Program-made: the position numbers and the translations under genes
DNA from: Candidatus Bipolaricaulota bacterium
GTDB lineage: Bacteria; Bipolaricaulota; Bipolaricaulia; UBA7950; UBA9294
Reading direction: 5' to 3'
NCBI GenBank assembly: GCA_028277345.1
Contig: JANQGM010000023.1
Location: forward strand, 7,895 to 71,894
Length of the DNA: 64,000 nt
Shown here: positions 9,869 through 20,494 of the stretch, piece after piece
Layout of the letters: the number at the start of each line of letters is the position of its first letter
Numbering within the stretch: the first letter of the stretch is position 1
The notes under the pieces: generated by a model
Databases searched by the model: none
Told to the model about the DNA's origin: nothing
What the model saw: only the letters and a program-made list of their open reading frames with translations

Positions 9869-10900
9869 CTATCCGCTTGTTTCGACAACAACGGAAATCG
9901 GACGGTGGTCGCTCACATGTGCGCTCGCTGGGAGCGTACTATTGACGACATCAAAAACCTCGTGCTCCACCCAACCCGCCTTGCTTGGTACTTGAAGAGG
10001 CAAGCTGCCGTTGACCAACCCCTGGGTAAACAAAATGTGATCCAACAAGATCGTCTCCGGACGCTCAGGCATGATGAAGTCCTTGAACTTGGCTGTCCAT
10101 CTCAAATGATCGGCGCTGTCGAACAAAGCGTGATTAAGGAAGCGCCGCGCGAAGAAGATGTCGCCTTGGATATTCGAGATCAAATCGTGCAGCAGATACT
10201 CTCGCTCGAAATGCTCCTTGCCTGGACCGTCGTTTAGGTCGCCGAGAACAAAGATCCCGGGATTCTCCACCTGCGCGAACTTGGCATCGATATACTCGCG
10301 GACATTGGAAGCTTCCGTCGTCATTTTCGACCGTGCCTTGACGGCGCCGTCGACGACCTCTTCCCGATCTTCCCCGCCCTTTTTCCATTTGCTTTGCGCG
10401 CTGCGAACGAATTTGCTCTTCAGATGAAGACCGATGAACTCAATACGCGTTCCCTGCCAATCCAACACCAGTACTTGAGGATGTCGGTAGTGTCGATGCT
10501 TCTTGGAGATCCGCTCGCGTTCACCGGTTTGCCTGTTCTTCTGGATGTAATGAACGGGCCATGAGGCACTGCTGAACGTGTCCCACGTGGAGGCAGGCTG
10601 CAAACTCGTTTGCGAAACCAGCGCCGGCTTGACTAAAAACCAGATCCATTGTGTGCCGTTGATCTTGTAGTCTTTCGTCGGCTCCTTCACGGGCACCCAC
10701 TCGCTATTGAGGATGTTGTTGGAAAACTGATCGATACCCACAGCATGCGCCGGTCCCTCAATCACGCACAGAATATCCGGGTCGATCTCCTGGATCGTCT
10801 TAGCGATGCCTGCTTGGCGTTGCTGGGCCGAGTCCGTGTCTTTAGGCAGTAGCTTGTGAAGATGCTTGATGTTCCAGGACGTAACTTTCAGTTTCCCCAT
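9869..10900 (-). CDS. Endonuclease/exonuclease/phosphatase (EEP) family protein
   Basis: Start MGKLKVTSWNIKHL behind AGGAGG (6-nt spacer). Motifs ILCVIEGP, GDLNDGPG and the C-terminal SDHRPISVVV are the EEP catalytic landmarks. Confidence 0.8.
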   Translation of the reverse strand: MGKLKVTSWNIKHLHKLLPKDTDSAQQRQAGIAKTIQEIDPDILCVIEGPAHAVGIDQFSNNILNSEWVPVKEPTKDYKINGTQWIWFLVKPALVSQTSLQPASTWDTFSSASWPVHYIQKNRQTGERERISKKHRHYRHPQVLVLDWQGTRIEFIGLHLKSKFVRSAQSKWKKGGEDREEVVDGAVKARSKMTTEASNVREYIDAKFAQVENPGIFVLGDLNDGPGKEHFEREYLLHDLISNIQGDIFFARRFLNHALFDSADHLRWTAKFKDFIMPERPETILLDHILFTQGLVNGSLPLQVPSKAGWVEHEVFDVVNSTLPASAHVSDHRPISVVVETSG

Positions 10901-11071
10901 GATGACCTCCTGGTGATAACGTTCTATCACATACTAGAAATTGTCAGAGTGTGCGTCAAAAACGGTTCAAGAAGCTTCGATTTACAGCTGACCTGAATCG
11001 CTGGACACTTCCTATGGCTACAGAATCCGCATCGTCGTACACTTACTCCAACACGGCGGCGAGGAGAACTA

Positions 11072-12448
11072 ATGAAAATCACGTTTGGTGGTGCGGCAGA
11101 AACCGTCACAGGCTCATGCCATCTGGTCGAAGTTGATGGACTCCGGGTGGTATTGGATTGCGGGTTCTTTCAAGGTGGACGCAAGCGTGAGGACCTGAAT
11201 CGAGAGCCGTTTCCCTTTGATCCCAAGAGCGTGGATGCTGTTCTGCTCTCACATGCCCATCTCGACCATTGCGGACGTCTGCCGCTCTTGGTCGATCGCG
11301 GCTTCTCTGGTCCCATCTATTGCACGCCGCCGACCGCCGACATCTCGAAACTGATCCTGGCCGATTCCGCCAGCCTGCAAATGAGCGAAGCCGCCTACAA
11401 GGCACGCAAGGCCGAGCGATTGGGACGCGAACCCGAGCCGCCCTTGTACGATATGGATGACGTCATGCGCACCGTTCGCCTGTTCCAGCCGGTCTCCGGC
11501 TACAACGCGCCGGTTCAACTCAATGACAAGGTCACCGCCGTCTTCCACGATGCCGGTCACATCCTCGGATCGGCCGCGATTGAGCTGCGTACCTCCAATG
11601 GAACCCTGTTGTTCAGTGGGGATCTCGGCAATCGCGATCAGCCGATCGTGGAAGACCCATGCACGCCGCCCAAGGCCGATGTGTTGCTTATCGAGTCCAC
11701 CTACGGAGATCGTGCGCACAAGAGTATGGAGGACACGTTGGCCGAGCTTCGCGAAGCCATTCACACCGTCATCCCCAATGGCGGGAACCTGATGATCCCC
11801 TCCTTTGCGCTGGAACGCACCCAAGAGGTGCTCTACGAGATCTTCAAGCTGTGGGAAGCCAAGGATCTGCCTCGGTGCCGCATCTTCCTCGACAGCCCAC
11901 TGGCCATCAGCACGACCAAGGTGTTCGCGCGCTATCGCGACTACTACGACGCCGAAGCACGTGCCGTCTTTGATGGCGAGCCCAATCCCTTCAGCTTCAC
12001 GCCGCTTCGGTTTACGCAGTCGACCGAGGAATCCAAAGCCATCAACCGCGCCGGGCGAGGCAACATCATCATCGCGGGAAGTGGCATGTGTACGGGCGGA
12101 CGCATCATCCACCACTTGCGCCATAACTTGTGGCACGACAAGTCCGGCATCCTGTTCGTCGGCTACCAAGCGGTGGGAACGCGGGGGCGGCACATCGTCG
12201 ATGGGGCAGAGTCAATCAAGATCTGGGGGGAAGAGATTGCCGTCAAGGCCCAGATGTGGACGACCAATGGTTTCTCGTCTCACGCCGATCAACCCATCCT
12301 GCTCGATTGGATTCGTCGTGCCGATCCCGAGCATCTCGTGCTCATCCATGGGGAAGACGAGATCCTCGACACGTTTGCGTCCAAGATCAAGGCCGATCTG
12401 TCGAAGGAATCGCACGTCGCGAAACTGGGTGAGACGATTGTCGTGTAG
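11072..12448 (+). CDS. MBL-fold beta-CASP ribonuclease (RNase J / CPSF-like)
   Basis: 458 aa. MKITFGGAAETVTGSCHLVE...VLDCGFFQG, the HxHxDH motif (SHAHLDHCG), and the beta-CASP and C-terminal motifs (GFSSHAD, VLIHGE). GAGGAG RBS. Confidence 0.85.
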   Translation: MKITFGGAAETVTGSCHLVEVDGLRVVLDCGFFQGGRKREDLNREPFPFDPKSVDAVLLSHAHLDHCGRLPLLVDRGFSGPIYCTPPTADISKLILADSASLQMSEAAYKARKAERLGREPEPPLYDMDDVMRTVRLFQPVSGYNAPVQLNDKVTAVFHDAGHILGSAAIELRTSNGTLLFSGDLGNRDQPIVEDPCTPPKADVLLIESTYGDRAHKSMEDTLAELREAIHTVIPNGGNLMIPSFALERTQEVLYEIFKLWEAKDLPRCRIFLDSPLAISTTKVFARYRDYYDAEARAVFDGEPNPFSFTPLRFTQSTEESKAINRAGRGNIIIAGSGMCTGGRIIHHLRHNLWHDKSGILFVGYQAVGTRGRHIVDGAESIKIWGEEIAVKAQMWTTNGFSSHADQPILLDWIRRADPEHLVLIHGEDEILDTFASKIKADLSKESHVAKLGETIVV

Positions 12449-15606: not shown

Positions 15607-18600
15607 TCAACGTGGCAGTTCGATCGACCGAAACGCCTCTCCCAAGAAGTCGAATTTCCTTCGGAATAAGCTTGACAGCTTGGGATCCGCAGTTGCGAGA
15701 AAAACCTGCTTGTCAGAGTTTCTTACAATCAGTCGAAGAACATCGAAAAACGCCAATGCATTTAGGTCATCGAAGTACATCAATGGCTCATCAAGCAAGA
15801 TGTATGGTGGAGCAGTAGTTACACAGCTATTCATTGCGAGAAACAGTGAAAGCGCCAGTGCTGCTCTCTGCCCCGCACTAAGGCGTGTGATCGGAAGCAG
15901 ACTTCCTTGCTCTCTGGGGACGGCCACTAGTCCGGATTTTCTCAACTTGATTCCGCTGAAATCCCTTGGCCAGCAAAGAATGGAGAATAACTCGTCAAGC
16001 AGCTCAAGGCTGGACTCCAAATACATCCCAACAATCTTTGTCCCGCTGCTTGCCCCCTCAATTATTGATTGAAGAACCTCCTGCCAAGACTCAATAGACT
16101 CGCAGATTCTTTTCTCTTCTCTTGCCTTTTCGTGCGCTGTGTCCGCTTGGCGTTCTAGTCGTCGAACTAACAGGCTGGCTGCTTTCGATGAATCGCTATC
16201 TCTTCTGTATGCACTAATTCGAGCTGCGATCTTTCTCAGCAGTTCGAGGGAATCGCCCACGGTTTGTCTCCCCGCGTCACCAGCGATTTCAAGAAGCCCA
16301 TTACCAAGGTCAGCGATTTCCGCCAATTTGTCCTCAATGTGAGAGATTCGCTTCTTGACGTCCATCTCTCCGAACGGAATTCTGGCTTTCTGAAGGATCT
16401 CCTTAACCTCGGAGTTGATGTTCGAGATTCTCAACTCGGTTGATTCAATATCACTTTCTACTTGAACGAGACTGAGTTGGGTCTCTTGAAACTGCGAATC
16501 GTATTTCACGAGGTGCTCTGAGCCCACCTTCAGTTTCGGATAGCGCTTGGTTATCTCGTCTTCTAGTTCAGCTAGCCTGACTTCAGTTAGACCTCTCGAT
16601 TCCAGATCAGTGCGAACTGATTTCAGTTCCAGCAGCGTGTTCTCATAACGTGTAAGAGCAGAGCGAAATGCCCGAAACCTCCTGTTGAGATCACGGATTC
16701 CAAGATCGTCAACAAACACATCTGGAAGCAGGCGTTTGGCAGCAACCTGGGCAGTTTGAAGAATGTGCAATCGGCGCTGTATTTGGTCAATCTGTTTCAG
16801 GTGCTCCGCTCTATCAAGCTCAAGATCAGCCAAAGAGGAGGCCAAGGCATCATCAGTCCGAAGATCCATAACTCGACGTTCAAGTTCGTCCCGTTGATAA
16901 GAGTGATTACACAACGGACATTCTTTTCTATCCGGTTGGATATTCAGTATTTCTGTTCCCGAGGAGATCAGCTCCTCGAGCAATCTCGTGATCTCCCCTG
17001 CTTTGTTGCGCAATCGCTCAAGCTTCTCAGATCTCCGCTGCTGTGCTGCACTCTCTCTGCGCAGTTCACTACGAGTGTCAGCAATCAGTTTGCCAATGGC
17101 CTCTTGCCCCGCAATTGCATTTGCAAAGCCTATCTCGTCTACATCCTTCAGCGAGGATGAGATATGTTGAATTTGCTCCGAAACGCTTTCTATTTGCTGA
17201 GACAGCCCGATTAGCTCGCCTCCATTGGGAGCAGACATGTACTTCCTGAGTTCCTCCAGCGTTTCGAGCGATTGCTGCAAGATTGCTGCATCTGTGCGAT
17301 CCTTCTTCAACTTCGATTCCAGTTTTCCTAGCTCTATATCCCTGATTTCTACATGTGAAGCGATCTGCCTAAACTCCCCCCGTTCTTCATCAACCTCACG
17401 GAGTGGAATATCGAGAAGCCACGGATTTGCAGAGCCAACCAACTCAATGCGATCTATCAGAGTTGGGATCTTAGTTTCCAACTCTTGTATTCCCTCCTGA
17501 GTCTCCAACCACTCGGCATTGATCTTGAGGCTTTTGAGTTCATTTCGGAGATTAGGGAAGAGGGAACTTTCAAACCCAGTGGCTTCATCTCTTGCTTGTG
17601 TCAAACTCGATCGAATCCGAGCGCGCTCATGAGAATACTGCTCCAGAAGCCGTTCGTGAGATCGTAGCCTCTCTGCTAATCGACTTCCAATGCCTCTTGC
17701 CCGCTCTAGGATGATAGCAGCCTCACGACCAAGCACGAGACCTTCCAATGCCCGACCGATTTCATCTCGCCCAGTGCTTTTGGCCAGCCTTGTCGCTGCA
17801 TCTGTGTCAAAAAAGTTGAATCTCCCAAAGGCTTCGTGAAGTCTATTGGTTCTGGATTTGTGAATCCCATACCAAGAGAGTGCCCGGGAACGGTACTCAG
17901 CGGGCTTGAGAGATCGATTCCATCTATATCTCCTAGCTCCCGCAAATCTTAATCCAATCTGCCTTATCGCCTCAGGATCCTTTGGGTTTCGATAGGTCTT
18001 CCCGCACGTCCAAAGCTCAATGGCCTCGAGCAGCGATGTTTTGCCTGCTCCATTTCGGCCAGCAATCAGATTTACTTGTCCGAAATCAAACACCTTGTTT
18101 TGAAGACAGGGCCTGTATTTCCGAAGAGACATGGATCGAATGCTATGAACTGAGTTCTTCGGGGCAATCTGAATGGGAGATCCCGAAGAAGGATTCACAC
18201 CTTTAATCGGGCTCCCTTCCATGAGTCGACCAACAACTTTGTCCATCGCCTCCGATTCGATATATACGCCATCAAGATCTGCATTGTGCAATCGTTGGAT
18301 CCAATCACCAATCAGATCTGGAGGGGCAATGGACAAAGAGGATCTCAGCTTGTCGAATCTCCTCGGAAGCTCTGAGAACACCTCAGATTCAGCAACCACA
18401 AGCTTTCTTGCGTATGTCAGATCCTCTTCAAGTTCAGTAGCGAAGCCAGAGGTTCGAATTGCACGACACTGCTCTTCTGGATAAACGAGAACCAAATAGA
18501 GATTCCACTTCAGCGCACCTGGAGAAGAGTAATACTCTTCGCTAAGTGTAGTATCCTGGTATTCCTTAAACTTCTCTTGCGATGTAATGGATGACGCATC

Positions 18601-18750
18601 AGATTCGATAAAAAGCTTTCCGGCCAGTCCATTGGAGAAAAACGGGGCAGACACTAGATGGTCATTCACCAGTTTGGGAGACGATGCAAAAGATGATACG
18701 ACTTGCAGAATTCTGCTCGTTCTAGAAGTCATGTTCTCGATTGATTGCAT
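15607..18750 (-). CDS. Rad50/SMC-like ABC ATPase with central CxxC hook motif and an uncharacterised N-terminal module
   Basis: Maximal ORF 15607-18768 (1053 aa). The best RBS (GAGGA, 5-nt spacer) favours ATG 18750; other in-frame ATGs are at 18768 and 18732. Walker A GRNGAGKT (18037-18060) appears only at aa 237. About 700 aa of charged, heptad-like sequence follow, with CPLC (16909-16920, aa 617-620) near the midpoint. LSAGQR signature (15865-15882), Walker B YILLDEP (15784-15804). Confidence 0.85.
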   Translation of the reverse strand: MQSIENMTSRTSRILQVVSSFASSPKLVNDHLVSAPFFSNGLAGKLFIESDASSITSQEKFKEYQDTTLSEEYYSSPGALKWNLYLVLVYPEEQCRAIRTSGFATELEEDLTYARKLVVAESEVFSELPRRFDKLRSSLSIAPPDLIGDWIQRLHNADLDGVYIESEAMDKVVGRLMEGSPIKGVNPSSGSPIQIAPKNSVHSIRSMSLRKYRPCLQNKVFDFGQVNLIAGRNGAGKTSLLEAIELWTCGKTYRNPKDPEAIRQIGLRFAGARRYRWNRSLKPAEYRSRALSWYGIHKSRTNRLHEAFGRFNFFDTDAATRLAKSTGRDEIGRALEGLVLGREAAIILERARGIGSRLAERLRSHERLLEQYSHERARIRSSLTQARDEATGFESSLFPNLRNELKSLKINAEWLETQEGIQELETKIPTLIDRIELVGSANPWLLDIPLREVDEERGEFRQIASHVEIRDIELGKLESKLKKDRTDAAILQQSLETLEELRKYMSAPNGGELIGLSQQIESVSEQIQHISSSLKDVDEIGFANAIAGQEAIGKLIADTRSELRRESAAQQRRSEKLERLRNKAGEITRLLEELISSGTEILNIQPDRKECPLCNHSYQRDELERRVMDLRTDDALASSLADLELDRAEHLKQIDQIQRRLHILQTAQVAAKRLLPDVFVDDLGIRDLNRRFRAFRSALTRYENTLLELKSVRTDLESRGLTEVRLAELEDEITKRYPKLKVGSEHLVKYDSQFQETQLSLVQVESDIESTELRISNINSEVKEILQKARIPFGEMDVKKRISHIEDKLAEIADLGNGLLEIAGDAGRQTVGDSLELLRKIAARISAYRRDSDSSKAASLLVRRLERQADTAHEKAREEKRICESIESWQEVLQSIIEGASSGTKIVGMYLESSLELLDELFSILCWPRDFSGIKLRKSGLVAVPREQGSLLPITRLSAGQRAALALSLFLAMNSCVTTAPPYILLDEPLMYFDDLNALAFFDVLRLIVRNSDKQVFLATADPKLSSLFRRKFDFLGEAFRSIELPR

Positions 18751-20494
18751 CCCTGTCCTCGCTTCCATCTGTGATTATTGGTTCCACATGATCCGTGATC
18801 GGTAGATTCCCTTCCGGGGTTGCATGCCAGATTACAAGTCGCTTTTCATCATCAATCGCTTTCTTGGCCAGTGCGAAGTGCCTTTGGGCCTGTGTATCGC
18901 TCTTGTGACCTATGAATGCGACTGTTGCTCCAGTCTCCCTAACAGGATCGTATACGTTCTGTCTAATCTTCCGCTGGGCACTAGACATCCGCCGCAGACC
19001 TTTACCCGCCAAGTCTCTTATACAGATTGGGAGATCCTCGACAGGGCCCGTCAGAATTGTCTGCAATGCATCGAATCTCGCGTAGGTATCCGTCCTGAAC
19101 ACCTCGGAATCCTCATGAGGGTCTTGAGCAACTGCGAGTCGGAATGATATCCTTCTTCTATCTGAACGCATTGACCTCAAATTCTCCACTTTATCCCAAT
19201 CTGTTGTTGTGAGAGCAGCAAGGCAACCACTAGACAGCAGCAAGAGCCTCTCTCTGTCTACAACAGACATACTCTCAAGCAACGAAAGATCAAAGCTATG
19301 GCCATCCCTCAAGCACATATCAACATATCCATCGTCAGCTTTGTTTGCCTCAGTCCAGGTTGTGGTTGCCCTATCCCAAGAGTAGAGAACGGGTCTGAAC
19401 GGCCCGGTTCTACCATTCCCCTGCGCAGGTCCTCGTGATCCCTTTTGCGACGGTTTGTGCTGTTGCACCATGAAGACATGCTCATTGTAATTGAGGGAAT
19501 ACATATGGGCACTTGGCTCATAACAGCGTATGTAGTACAACCCCTTGTCATGCAAGGCTTGTATATGTAGATCACTGGTATCCGCGCTTGGCGCTCGAGT
19601 CAGGATAGTCGATCCCCCGTAGGGCGATCGAGATTTATCATGTGCAAAAACGAAATCCCTCGCCCAGTTAACCGAGAGGAATTCAACATGCACTGCGTCA
19701 TGATCATACAAATGACTGCGGAATGAGATAAAGCTAGTATGAGTCGGAGCAACGCATAGCTGGAGATGAACCACGAGCCACGGAGTGTGATAATCGGTTG
19801 ACCACGCCTCGTTTTTGAGATCTCCCAAGCTGTCTGAACAGATTAGCGGCACAAGCTTAATGGTGTTTTGATCTTTGGGATTGCGAAAGATAAACCGTGT
19901 GCTTCCCAATATCAGATTGTCAGGCTCAAATCGGTATTCCTTGTCAGCCATTTCCTGGCCTTTGAACTGAACAACAACCACGATTCGCATCTGTCCGCTC
20001 TTGTCCTTCAAAGAGAAGACACAACACACAGGGTCCAGGTATCCTTTCTGGTTTTCCGGGGTGTCCAACGTTTCGTCATATATCCAAACTATTTCAGGAT
20101 GTGATTCGATCAGGCTCTTGAGCGAATCTGGACGGATGCCTTCGCACCCCATGAGCCAAAGCGTTCCTTGTTTCGGAGCGTTGCCCCTCCGCAGCAGACG
20201 ATCGACAACTTCCCACGGGCACGAATACTCCGGAATGACCGCCAAGTCTGGATTCTCTTGCAGTGCAAGCTCGAGAAAGCTCTCATGTTTCTTTGGCGCC
20301 AATCGCCTATTTAAGTTGCGGACCACGTTGCTGACTTCGATCGGTCCTTGAGGCTGAAGTATCAGCGTTTTGTATCGAGCAGTGTTTGGTTTCAGAAACG
20401 GAAAGCCGGGTTGCGTAAATCCCTTCTGCGACAAGCGCTCGTCAACATACACGCATTCCACGCAACCACTCCTAATTACATGAAACGAAGTCAT
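18722..20494 (-). CDS. 590-aa protein: N-terminal nitrilase/CN-hydrolase-like domain (inferred) plus an unknown C-terminal domain
   Basis: Motif order matches the CN-hydrolase fold: TLILQPQG (first strand), DLAVIPEY (Glu, aa 89), VVVVQFKGQEMADKEY (Lys 178 or 185), KLVPLICSDSLGD (Cys 219, nt 19838-19840). The C-terminal ~280 aa has no motif I recognise. Its stop lies inside the ATPase gene. Confidence 0.75.
   Translation of the reverse strand: MTSFHVIRSGCVECVYVDERLSQKGFTQPGFPFLKPNTARYKTLILQPQGPIEVSNVVRNLNRRLAPKKHESFLELALQENPDLAVIPEYSCPWEVVDRLLRRGNAPKQGTLWLMGCEGIRPDSLKSLIESHPEIVWIYDETLDTPENQKGYLDPVCCVFSLKDKSGQMRIVVVVQFKGQEMADKEYRFEPDNLILGSTRFIFRNPKDQNTIKLVPLICSDSLGDLKNEAWSTDYHTPWLVVHLQLCVAPTHTSFISFRSHLYDHDAVHVEFLSVNWARDFVFAHDKSRSPYGGSTILTRAPSADTSDLHIQALHDKGLYYIRCYEPSAHMYSLNYNEHVFMVQQHKPSQKGSRGPAQGNGRTGPFRPVLYSWDRATTTWTEANKADDGYVDMCLRDGHSFDLSLLESMSVVDRERLLLLSSGCLAALTTTDWDKVENLRSMRSDRRRISFRLAVAQDPHEDSEVFRTDTYARFDALQTILTGPVEDLPICIRDLAGKGLRRMSSAQRKIRQNVYDPVRETGATVAFIGHKSDTQAQRHFALAKKAIDDEKRLVIWHATPEGNLPITDHVEPIITDGSEDRDAINREHDF

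Follow-up and report, generated by a model that had tools for sequence, protein, structure and literature searches.

Results and discussion

Two overlapping genes in the window

The window analysed here is a stretch of 64,000 nucleotides (nt) from a Candidatus Bipolaricaulota bacterium (GenBank assembly GCA_028277345.1, contig JANQGM010000023.1). Its minus strand carries two overlapping genes, one for a Rad50-like ATPase with a long N-terminal module and, immediately upstream, one for a partner protein with a predicted nitrilase fold (Table 1). In the terms used for Lamassu and ABC-3C systems, the ATPase corresponds to LmuB, the module to the middle component LmuC, and the partner is a candidate counterpart of the effector LmuA. 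According to the list of open reading frames (ORFs) and the translation of the window, the maximal ORF of the ATPase runs from 15607 to 18768 on the minus strand (1053 codons). The motif positions claimed in a first-pass annotation of this DNA were all confirmed in it: GRNGAGKT (Walker A) at amino acids (aa) 237-244, CPLC at aa 617-620 and the signature LSAGQR at aa 963-968. The true start is probably Met7, which follows a Shine-Dalgarno-like GAGGA and is also where an identical deposited protein of 1047 aa (P0001) begins. With this start Walker A shifts merely from aa 237 to aa 231; P0001 numbering counts from Met7, so that the Walker A lysine K243 of the maximal ORF becomes K237. The ORF of the partner spans 18722-20494 on the same strand; translation probably begins with the GTG at 20461, and the gene overlaps the ATPase start by 29 nt.

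Table 1. Coordinates in the window of the two genes and their predicted parts
Feature	Position	Strand	Details
Upstream partner, candidate effector (LmuA analogue)	18722..20461	-	579 aa; deposited protein P0077, 579 aa; homologue upstream in 16/16 loci
Predicted nitrilase-superfamily (C-N hydrolase) domain	19442..20461	-	Foldseek top 50; putative triad E78 (20228-20230), K167 (19961-19963), C208 (19838-19840)
C-terminal domain of partner, ~240 aa, mixed helices and sheet	18722..19441	-	AlphaFold2 model, pLDDT mostly 30-65
MC1-LmuB fusion ATPase gene	15607..18750	-	1047 aa from Met7; GAGGA; P0001; PADLOC LmuB E=2.9e-33
Globular alpha/beta core of middle component	18331..18750	-	MComp1 match 18337-18576; pLDDT >=90
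Short helical sub-domain	18220..18315	-	AlphaFold2 helices 146-156 and 169-177; invariant W150, L154
Variable linker from module to ABC head	18136..18219	-	Low AlphaFold2 confidence; columns unconserved
ABC head, N-terminal half	17719..18135	-	Includes Walker A GRNGAGKT (18037-18060); Pfam SMC_N/AAA_15 from aa ~210
Ascending coiled-coil arm, ~267 aa	16921..17718	-	No conserved columns; few Pro/Gly; raised periodicity
CPLC zinc-hook motif at apex	16909..16920	-	C611, P612, C614 (P0001 numbering) invariant
Descending coiled-coil arm, ~275 aa	16087..16908	-	Same basis as ascending arm
ABC head, C-terminal half	15607..16086	-	LSAGQR (15865-15882), Walker B YILLDE (15787-15804), D-loop; colinear with M. 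jannaschii Rad50

The N-terminal module is conserved

A homologue search with the ATPase yielded 76 proteins, 67 of which are full length (986-1054 aa, 24-37% identity, most aligned over at least 90% of the query). Walker A lies at aa 183-245 in all 67, mostly at 220-227. In an alignment of 32 N-terminal sequences Y85, K116, W150 and L154 are invariant, and D49, W82, E108, A114, R115, V118 and L159 nearly so (P0001 numbering). Given the position of Walker A and the conserved N-terminal residues, the long N-terminus is not an artefact of the start codon. The opposite reading, in which translation starts just before Walker A or two genes were merged by a sequencing error, can point to internal ATG or GTG codons at aa 175, 183, 191, 213 and 226. 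Nonetheless, the frame is continuous, the region is conserved in the 67 homologues and at 16 independent genomic loci, invariant residues are found throughout aa 40-160, the structural model of the region is confident (see below) and the domain has a Pfam match. We consider such an artefact hardly conceivable, and already refuted by conservation. What the first-pass annotation had described as an unexplained region of ~230 aa before Walker A is a real module of ~200 aa; a true start downstream of aa ~200, the possibility that it had set against its own proposal, does not agree with an N-terminus retained in 67 homologues.

The module belongs to the middle components

The same annotation had hypothesized that aa 1-230 correspond, in fused form, to the LmuC-like middle component (MC) that SMC-type defence systems with three genes encode separately, and had advised searching them alone against family profiles. 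Profile matches place them among the middle components: Pfam PF20289 (MComp1, ABC-3C Middle Component 1) matches aa 65-144 with E=1.9e-7 and 31.2 bits, which exceeds the gathering score (27.3). Homologous modules, scanned alone, match MComp1 in 27 of 32 cases and the PADLOC LmuC model PDLC03873 in six of 32, while none of the 32 matches a PADLOC LmuB model, from which it follows that the LmuB models do not contain the module. The profile matches support a middle component that is present as a fused domain instead of a separate gene. The resulting order, effector followed by MC-ATPase, is the outcome expected from a fusion of adjacent lmuC and lmuB genes.

We modelled the module with AlphaFold2 (AF2) on the 32-sequence alignment, obtaining a mean predicted local distance difference test score (pLDDT) of 85.8 and a predicted template-modelling score of 0.71. 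The model comprises an alpha/beta core (aa 1-140; all 10-residue blocks within aa 11-130 have a mean pLDDT of at least 90) with the conserved residues D49, W82, Y85, E108, A114, R115 and K116. Two helices form a sub-domain (aa 146-177), which might dock on the ATPase in the way suggested for the extra short domain of long LmuC. No secondary structure is predicted beyond aa 177; here the last three 10-residue blocks have a mean pLDDT of 51-69, and residues 193-195 fall below 50.

A Foldseek search of the Protein Data Bank (PDB) with this model returned weak matches only (best E=0.012, template-modelling (TM) score 0.29-0.35, root-mean-square deviation (rmsd) above 5 Å), the best of them to restriction-endonuclease-like domains: Cap4 nuclease (6vm6/6wam), MspJI (4f0p) and Mus81-Eme1. 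Searching PDB sequences with the profile of the module yielded no relevant match. It might be argued from these folds that the module is a possibly active PD-(D/E)xK nuclease and the ATPase a self-contained nuclease-ATPase (a fused SbcD-SbcC, or OLD/Gabija-like), the upstream protein being an accessory; the conserved D49, E108, R115 and K116 are indeed located at strand ends, and the first-pass annotation had seen a potential degenerate PD-(D/E)xK-like or sensor pattern in KWNLYLVLVYPEE (aa 87-99 of the maximal ORF) and ELEEDLTYARKLVV (aa 112-125). We think a self-contained nuclease-ATPase of this kind unlikely; the module itself may have a degenerate PD-(D/E)xK-like fold. The structural matches are weak, and the predicted topology is non-canonical: in place of alpha-beta-beta-beta-alpha-beta with D...(D/E)xK, a helix stands between strands 2 and 3 and the RK pair at the start of strand 4. 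Pfam, moreover, places the region in MComp1, and a triad of the catalytic type is fully conserved in the upstream protein (see below), which argues that this protein is the enzyme of the pair.

The fusion of middle component and ATPase is fixed in the family, being encoded by one ORF in all 67 full-length homologues and at 16 of 16 loci. At a threshold of E<=1e-3 an exhaustive search with the module profile recovered 769 clusters (50% identity), 343 of them with E<=1e-30; nearly all of the best 150 of the 769 are ~1020-1050 aa long and begin with the module. A word-indexed homologue search restricted to the first 200 aa gave zero matches, and tblastn of a module against plasmids found the fused Polaromonas gene as its sole match. 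The first-pass annotation had also asked whether aa 1-230 are encoded separately in some homologues. Within the clade no split form (a stand-alone module plus a separate ATPase) was found: the short profile matches are fragments or frameshifted genes, the fragments breaking off within the ATPase head or where the contig stops. Three short matches were considered as split versions and rejected, namely P0209 (cut at a contig end), P0154 (frameshifted) and P0160 (a heavily fragmented gene). With no split homologue found in the clade, it is the Pfam and PADLOC profiles that connect the module to stand-alone middle components.

Zinc hook, coiled coil and ATPase head

Each of the 67 full-length homologues has exactly one CxxC motif, always CPxC and near aa 600. 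Being invariant and central between Walker A and the signature, it agrees with the earlier reading of CPLC as a zinc hook, for which loss of CxxC in homologues had been named as the contrary observation. Conservation of the head ends around aa 344 and restarts around aa 889, leaving arms of 267 and 275 residues that flank the hook. A crude periodicity analysis, used as a stand-in for a coiled-coil predictor, indicates that the ~540-aa insert between the two head halves is helix-like: the arm region shows raised hydrophobic periodicity at 3.5 residues and a scarcity of Pro and Gly, whereas the heads show neither.

The best PADLOC matches of the ATPase are LmuB models (E=2.9e-33, 2.9e-27, 2.5e-23 and 3.9e-17). 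NCBIfam Rad50 models cover aa 365-1001 and score 64-67 bits against cut-offs of 700-1000. Around Walker A the residues G231, N233, G236, K237, T238 and S239 are invariant in the homologues, and in the C-terminal head S958, G960 (99%), Q961, D987, P989, D994 and D995 are conserved. The signature, Walker B and D-loop of this second half are colinear with those of solved Rad50 heads, including that of M. jannaschii. Judged by its motifs and profile matches, the second gene (15607-18750) is a Rad50-like LmuB ATPase whose head is split by a coiled coil. The Walker B motif reads hhhhDDP in 66 of the 67 homologues; the window protein alone has DEP, which may speed up ATP hydrolysis.

Some further features of the head were noted. 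Near 15607-15700 (minus strand) the family consensus is QIFFATA, i.e. F-A-T-A without a conserved His at the putative H-loop site. Rad50 and SbcC carry an H-loop histidine (...ISH). The equivalence of QIFFATA to the H-loop is a candidate one, the alignment to solved Rad50 heads having ended before this region. The Walker A context N[GA]xGKTSLLE(AIE) is common to the fusion ATPase family and RecF, and the NCBIfam recF model matches aa 210-275 (E=5.8e-14); this suggests that the N-terminal head lobe is nearer in sequence to RecF than to typical Rad50. Owing to the shared Walker A pattern, a scan of genome contigs with the full-length alignment also picked up ~70 loci that are in fact dnaN-recF; these were discarded and 10 true loci remained.

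The upstream partner has a predicted nitrilase fold

The partner protein of the window has no sequence match in Pfam, PADLOC, NCBIfam or PDB. Profile searches with thirteen members of its family against Pfam (CN_hydrolase included), PADLOC and PDB sequences gave no match either. The family does have conserved motifs in its alignment: PEYSCPW, LWxLGCE, VQFK, LICSD, HxQL, NWA and YGGS. A Foldseek search of PDB with the AF2 model of the partner is uniform in its outcome, as all 50 top matches belong to the nitrilase superfamily (E down to 1.9e-7, probability 1.00). They comprise nitrilases, formamidases, amidases, carbamoylases and the glutaminase domain of NAD synthetase, with target-normalised TM scores up to 0.63. 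In this model nearly all 10-residue blocks of aa 1-210 have a mean pLDDT above 85, those of aa 211-350 range from 49 to 88, and the overall value is 73.

Enzymes of the nitrilase superfamily have an alpha-beta-beta-alpha sandwich fold and a Glu-Lys-Cys triad placed at strand ends. A putative triad in the partner (E78, K167 and C208) lies within the motifs PEY, QFK and IC(S/A)(D/E), likewise at the ends of predicted strands, and every bacterial homologue with coverage has all three residues. The partner is predicted to have a nitrilase-superfamily hydrolase fold over aa 1-340 with this Glu-Lys-Cys triad. An enzymatic-type N-terminal domain and a separate C-terminal region is also the architecture of LmuA; no LmuA profile of PADLOC or C-terminal domain (CTD) profile of the ABC-3C families in Pfam matches any of the 13 members. 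By analogy, the C-terminal region might dock on the ATPase.

A fixed gene pair in a mobile setting

At all 16 bacterial loci with the fused ATPase the same-strand ORF immediately upstream matches the effector profile (E 1e-88 to 1e-230). The loci stem from Bacteroidota, Nitrospirota, Thauera, Flavobacterium, Variovorax, Rhodanobacter, Comamonadaceae, Pirellulaceae, Akkermansiaceae, Lysobacter and an IncP plasmid of Polaromonas. On the first four contigs inspected, a gene of 485-606 aa without a Pfam match abuts or overlaps the ATPase start, and in all four cases (4/4) it is homologous to the partner in the window. A more divergent pair, again with the partner directly upstream on the same strand, is found on a plasmid of Natronorubrum bangense (L087), and both genes are adjacent in a Hodarchaeota metagenome-assembled genome. 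The partner family is constant, i.e. the same family occurs in every locus examined. To judge from these sequences, the partner gene is an obligate partner of the fused ATPase and the pair is a fixed two-gene module. In the RefSeq records examined the partner is labelled 'hypothetical protein' and the ATPase 'AAA family ATPase'.

The distribution of the pair is patchy: Bacteroidota, Nitrospirota, Proteobacteria, Verrucomicrobiota, Planctomycetota and archaea. Within the window, positions 16000-20000 have a GC content of 0.48-0.49, against 0.54-0.61 in the remainder. Related loci neighbour McrBC, a NACHT/STAND protein, AbiEii or an integrase, and relatives occur on a conjugative IncP plasmid (Polaromonas) and, beside an integrase, on a haloarchaeal plasmid. 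We regard the pair as horizontally acquired. In the window its flanks are housekeeping genes, with an HpcH aldolase / FMN reductase pair on one side and a GntR-ABC transporter operon on the other. A search for island boundaries at 15-21 kb (tRNA, flanking direct repeats, terminators) gave nothing convincing, and no integrase was detected near the pair.

The neighbours and the plasmid carriage found elsewhere are more in keeping with a mobile conflict module than with a repair system of the housekeeping kind. The latter would be a DNA repair or processing machine of the SbcCD/Rad50-Mre11 kind, serving housekeeping or plasmid maintenance, non-immune, and with its nuclease replaced by another enzyme. 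Support for it comes from the Rad50-like sequence of the ATPase, from the Gene Ontology term double-strand break repair on RefSeq homologues and from the metabolic genes around the pair in the window; in addition, long LmuB is the Lamassu branch nearest SbcC (10.1101/2025.04.02.646746). These points are outweighed by the patchy occurrence across bacterial phyla and archaea, by the low GC of the stretch, by relatives that are plasmid-borne or lie beside McrBC, AbiEii, NACHT or integrase genes, and by a nitrilase-type hydrolase without an obvious role in DNA repair. Furthermore, the best profile matches are to LmuB while Rad50 stays far below its cut-off (67 bits against 1000), and the partner, having no Pfam match at all, has no metallophosphoesterase match either. 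A repair machine is therefore improbable.

Several loci show additional features. At L005 (14261-15108 and 9860-13987) a NACHT/HEAT-repeat STAND protein gene lies directly downstream of the pair and is followed by a second, different SMC_N/AAA_23 ATPase gene; two SMC-like systems may thus share a defence island at this locus. At L087 (7956-12727) the pair is preceded by an integrase, and then come a gene of the PD-(D/E)XK nuclease family and one for an ATP-dependent DNA helicase (AddAB-like); the N-terminus of this ATPase is too divergent for the module profile at E<=1e-3. At L090 (5001-8016), on a metagenomic contig, six small ORFs stand in place of an intact ATPase gene beside AbiEii and ResIII genes; this is either a decayed pseudogene or the result of indel errors in a long-read assembly. 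In the window itself, a beta-CASP/metallo-beta-lactamase RNase-J-like gene (11072-12448, plus strand) and an endonuclease/exonuclease/phosphatase-family gene (9869-10930, minus strand) are found ~3-6 kb from the module; both look like housekeeping genes.

A proposed conflict module

Taken together, we interpret the pair as a two-gene conflict module of the Lamassu/ABC-3C kind, probably directed against phages or plasmids and consisting of a fused MC-LmuB ATPase and a nitrilase-type effector (estimated probability about 0.72). On this reading it is a 'long Lamassu' variant with two genes that would sense DNA ends and release its effector. In the solved short Lamassu systems the LmuB dimer holds a monomeric, inactive LmuA, and the head together with LmuC binds a DNA end; the effector is then released in an ATP-dependent manner and oligomerizes (10.1101/2025.06.23.660979, 10.1101/2025.04.02.646746, 10.1101/2025.03.14.643221).

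Along these lines, the fused ATPase would dimerize through the CPxC zinc hook on top of an antiparallel coiled coil of ~270+275 residues. The dimer would keep the effector inactive, probably as a monomer, the C-terminal domain of the effector presumably docking on the ATPase. With a middle component tethered to each ATPase chain the ratio of the two is forced to 1:1, giving a 2:2 stoichiometry as in SbcC2D2, and the module is likely to be head-proximal, as predicted for long Lamassu. The head and the tethered middle component could then recognize foreign DNA ends or replication structures, after which ATP binding and hydrolysis would free the effector. The freed effector would oligomerize, become active like other nitrilase-family enzymes, hydrolyse an essential substrate with a C-N bond and thereby abort the infection. 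Members of the nitrilase superfamily work as dimers or larger oligomers, which would fit an effector that is sequestered as a monomer and oligomerizes once released.

Several observations weigh against this interpretation. The MComp1 match is modest (about 31-33 bits), the top 50 Foldseek PDB matches of the module include no solved LmuC or SbcD, and no specific stand-alone middle-component homologue was retrieved for comparison. The 13 partner-family members match no LmuA, ABC-3C CTD or CN_hydrolase sequence model; the assignment of the partner comes from a predicted fold, and the C-terminal half of the protein is modelled poorly. The locus in the window lies outside any defence island, and because its Walker B motif is DE instead of the DD of the family, the kinetics of this ATPase may differ. 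Finally, the solved Lamassu complexes are short systems with LmuC at the coiled-coil apex and a 1:2:1 stoichiometry (10.1101/2025.06.23.660979, 10.1101/2025.04.02.646746), so that their mechanism may not be transferable to a 2:2 fused form.

More tentatively, and with somewhat less than even chances in our estimate, the family, with its 343 or more clusters (50% identity), could be an unrecognized but widespread branch of the immune systems based on SMC proteins. Such a branch would have kept an SbcD-derived middle component on the ATPase in an SbcC2D2-like, head-proximal 2:2 arrangement, possibly as an intermediate between SbcCD and Lamassu, and its sequence-dark nitrilase output would be a new chemistry of abortive infection. 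If so, the effector would act on a C-N substrate, for example an amide-bearing nucleotide or cofactor, or a cell-wall or protein target.

Lamassu is among the commonest bacterial defence families. To our knowledge the structures that explain its mechanism date from 2025 and are confined to the short forms with three or two genes. A natural fusion of LmuC to LmuB dictates both the stoichiometry of the middle component and its location, and would thus offer a convenient single-chain construct for structures of the unsolved long branch and for testing its descent from SbcCD. Through the partner, in turn, the effector repertoire of Lamassu would gain a hydrolase of the nitrilase type; we know of no established role for nitrilase domains in defence systems. 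Since the partner is missed by PADLOC v2 and Pfam and is named 'hypothetical protein', systems of this type are probably under-counted in defence censuses.

Comparison with known systems

The closest resemblance is to the long branch of Lamassu/ABC-3C, whose LmuB is described as having a single CxxC, a Walker B of the form hhhhDD and a length of ~800 aa (10.1101/2025.04.02.646746). The present family agrees in each respect, with a single CPxC in 67/67 homologues, DD in 66/67 and ~830 aa when the module is left out. Long LmuC consists of a globular domain and a short domain on an unstructured linker; it is reported to resemble the C-terminal domain of SbcD and, like that domain, is predicted to be located at the heads, here those of LmuB (10.1101/2025.04.02.646746); in the AF2 model our module likewise has a globular part and a short domain on a linker. 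Both systems also have the effector gene first and a patchy, mobile distribution, and the predicted architecture of the partner, an enzymatic-type N-terminal and a separate C-terminal domain, resembles that of the Lamassu effector. Whereas Lamassu has three genes in the order lmuA-lmuC-lmuB, only two are present here, though the modules still follow the order A, C, B: the middle component is covalently joined to the N-terminus of the ATPase. The effectors differ as well. In the available part of the Lamassu census, Cap4, Mrr, Protease, Sir2, FMO, HNH, SMEK and Lipase are named among nine effector domains (10.1101/2025.04.02.646746); the nitrilase fold predicted here is absent from these named domains, has no LmuA or CTD profile match and is constant across loci. 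The same census, the most recent one, records a loss of LmuC in type I and has no mention of a fusion. The Walker B variant DE sets the copy in the window apart from long Lamassu too.

Type I Lamassu (LmuA-LmuB, e.g. in Bacillus cellulasensis) has two genes as well, with the effector upstream of the SMC-like ATPase, but is a short form that has lost LmuC (10.1101/2025.06.23.660979). Its LmuB has Walker A at the extreme N-terminus, in contrast to the present long-type ATPase, in which LmuC is kept as a fused domain. With SbcCD and Mre11-Rad50 the family shares the ABC head, the long antiparallel coiled coil, the CxxC hook and a partner module that is encoded just upstream of the ATPase and thought to bind its head. 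It differs from them in having no Mre11/SbcD phosphoesterase domain, in scoring far below the Rad50 cut-offs of NCBIfam, in a nitrilase-like partner and in a module whose Foldseek matches do not include SbcD.

Nitrilase domains are also seen outside SMC-based systems. Fusions of reverse transcriptases (RTs) and nitrilases exist among DRT-type systems. One named example of a reverse-transcriptase defence system with a nitrilase domain is Rst_RT-nitrilase-Tm (10.1101/2024.10.26.620412). These systems and the present one have in common a nitrilase-superfamily domain as the presumed toxic or effector module. The sensor, however, is a reverse transcriptase in the former and an SMC-like ATPase here, and our partner family has no CN_hydrolase match.

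The available parts of the Lamassu and LmuC literature revealed no fused LmuC and no nitrilase or amidase effector; the founding paper of ABC-3C lay outside this search, so that a prior mention is possible. Krishnan et al. (2020) is said to be the source of ABC-3C and the MC families. Pfam's precomputed annotations already mark MComp1 on several long homologues, which means that the fusion architecture is visible in databases, though we found no published description of it. Overall, the system departs from Lamassu/ABC-3C in gene number (C and B being fused), in the predicted identity of its effector and in the missing match to an LmuA C-terminal-domain profile. The main additions made here are the sequence-dark partner with its predicted nitrilase fold and the strict two-gene architecture of a large and widely distributed family.

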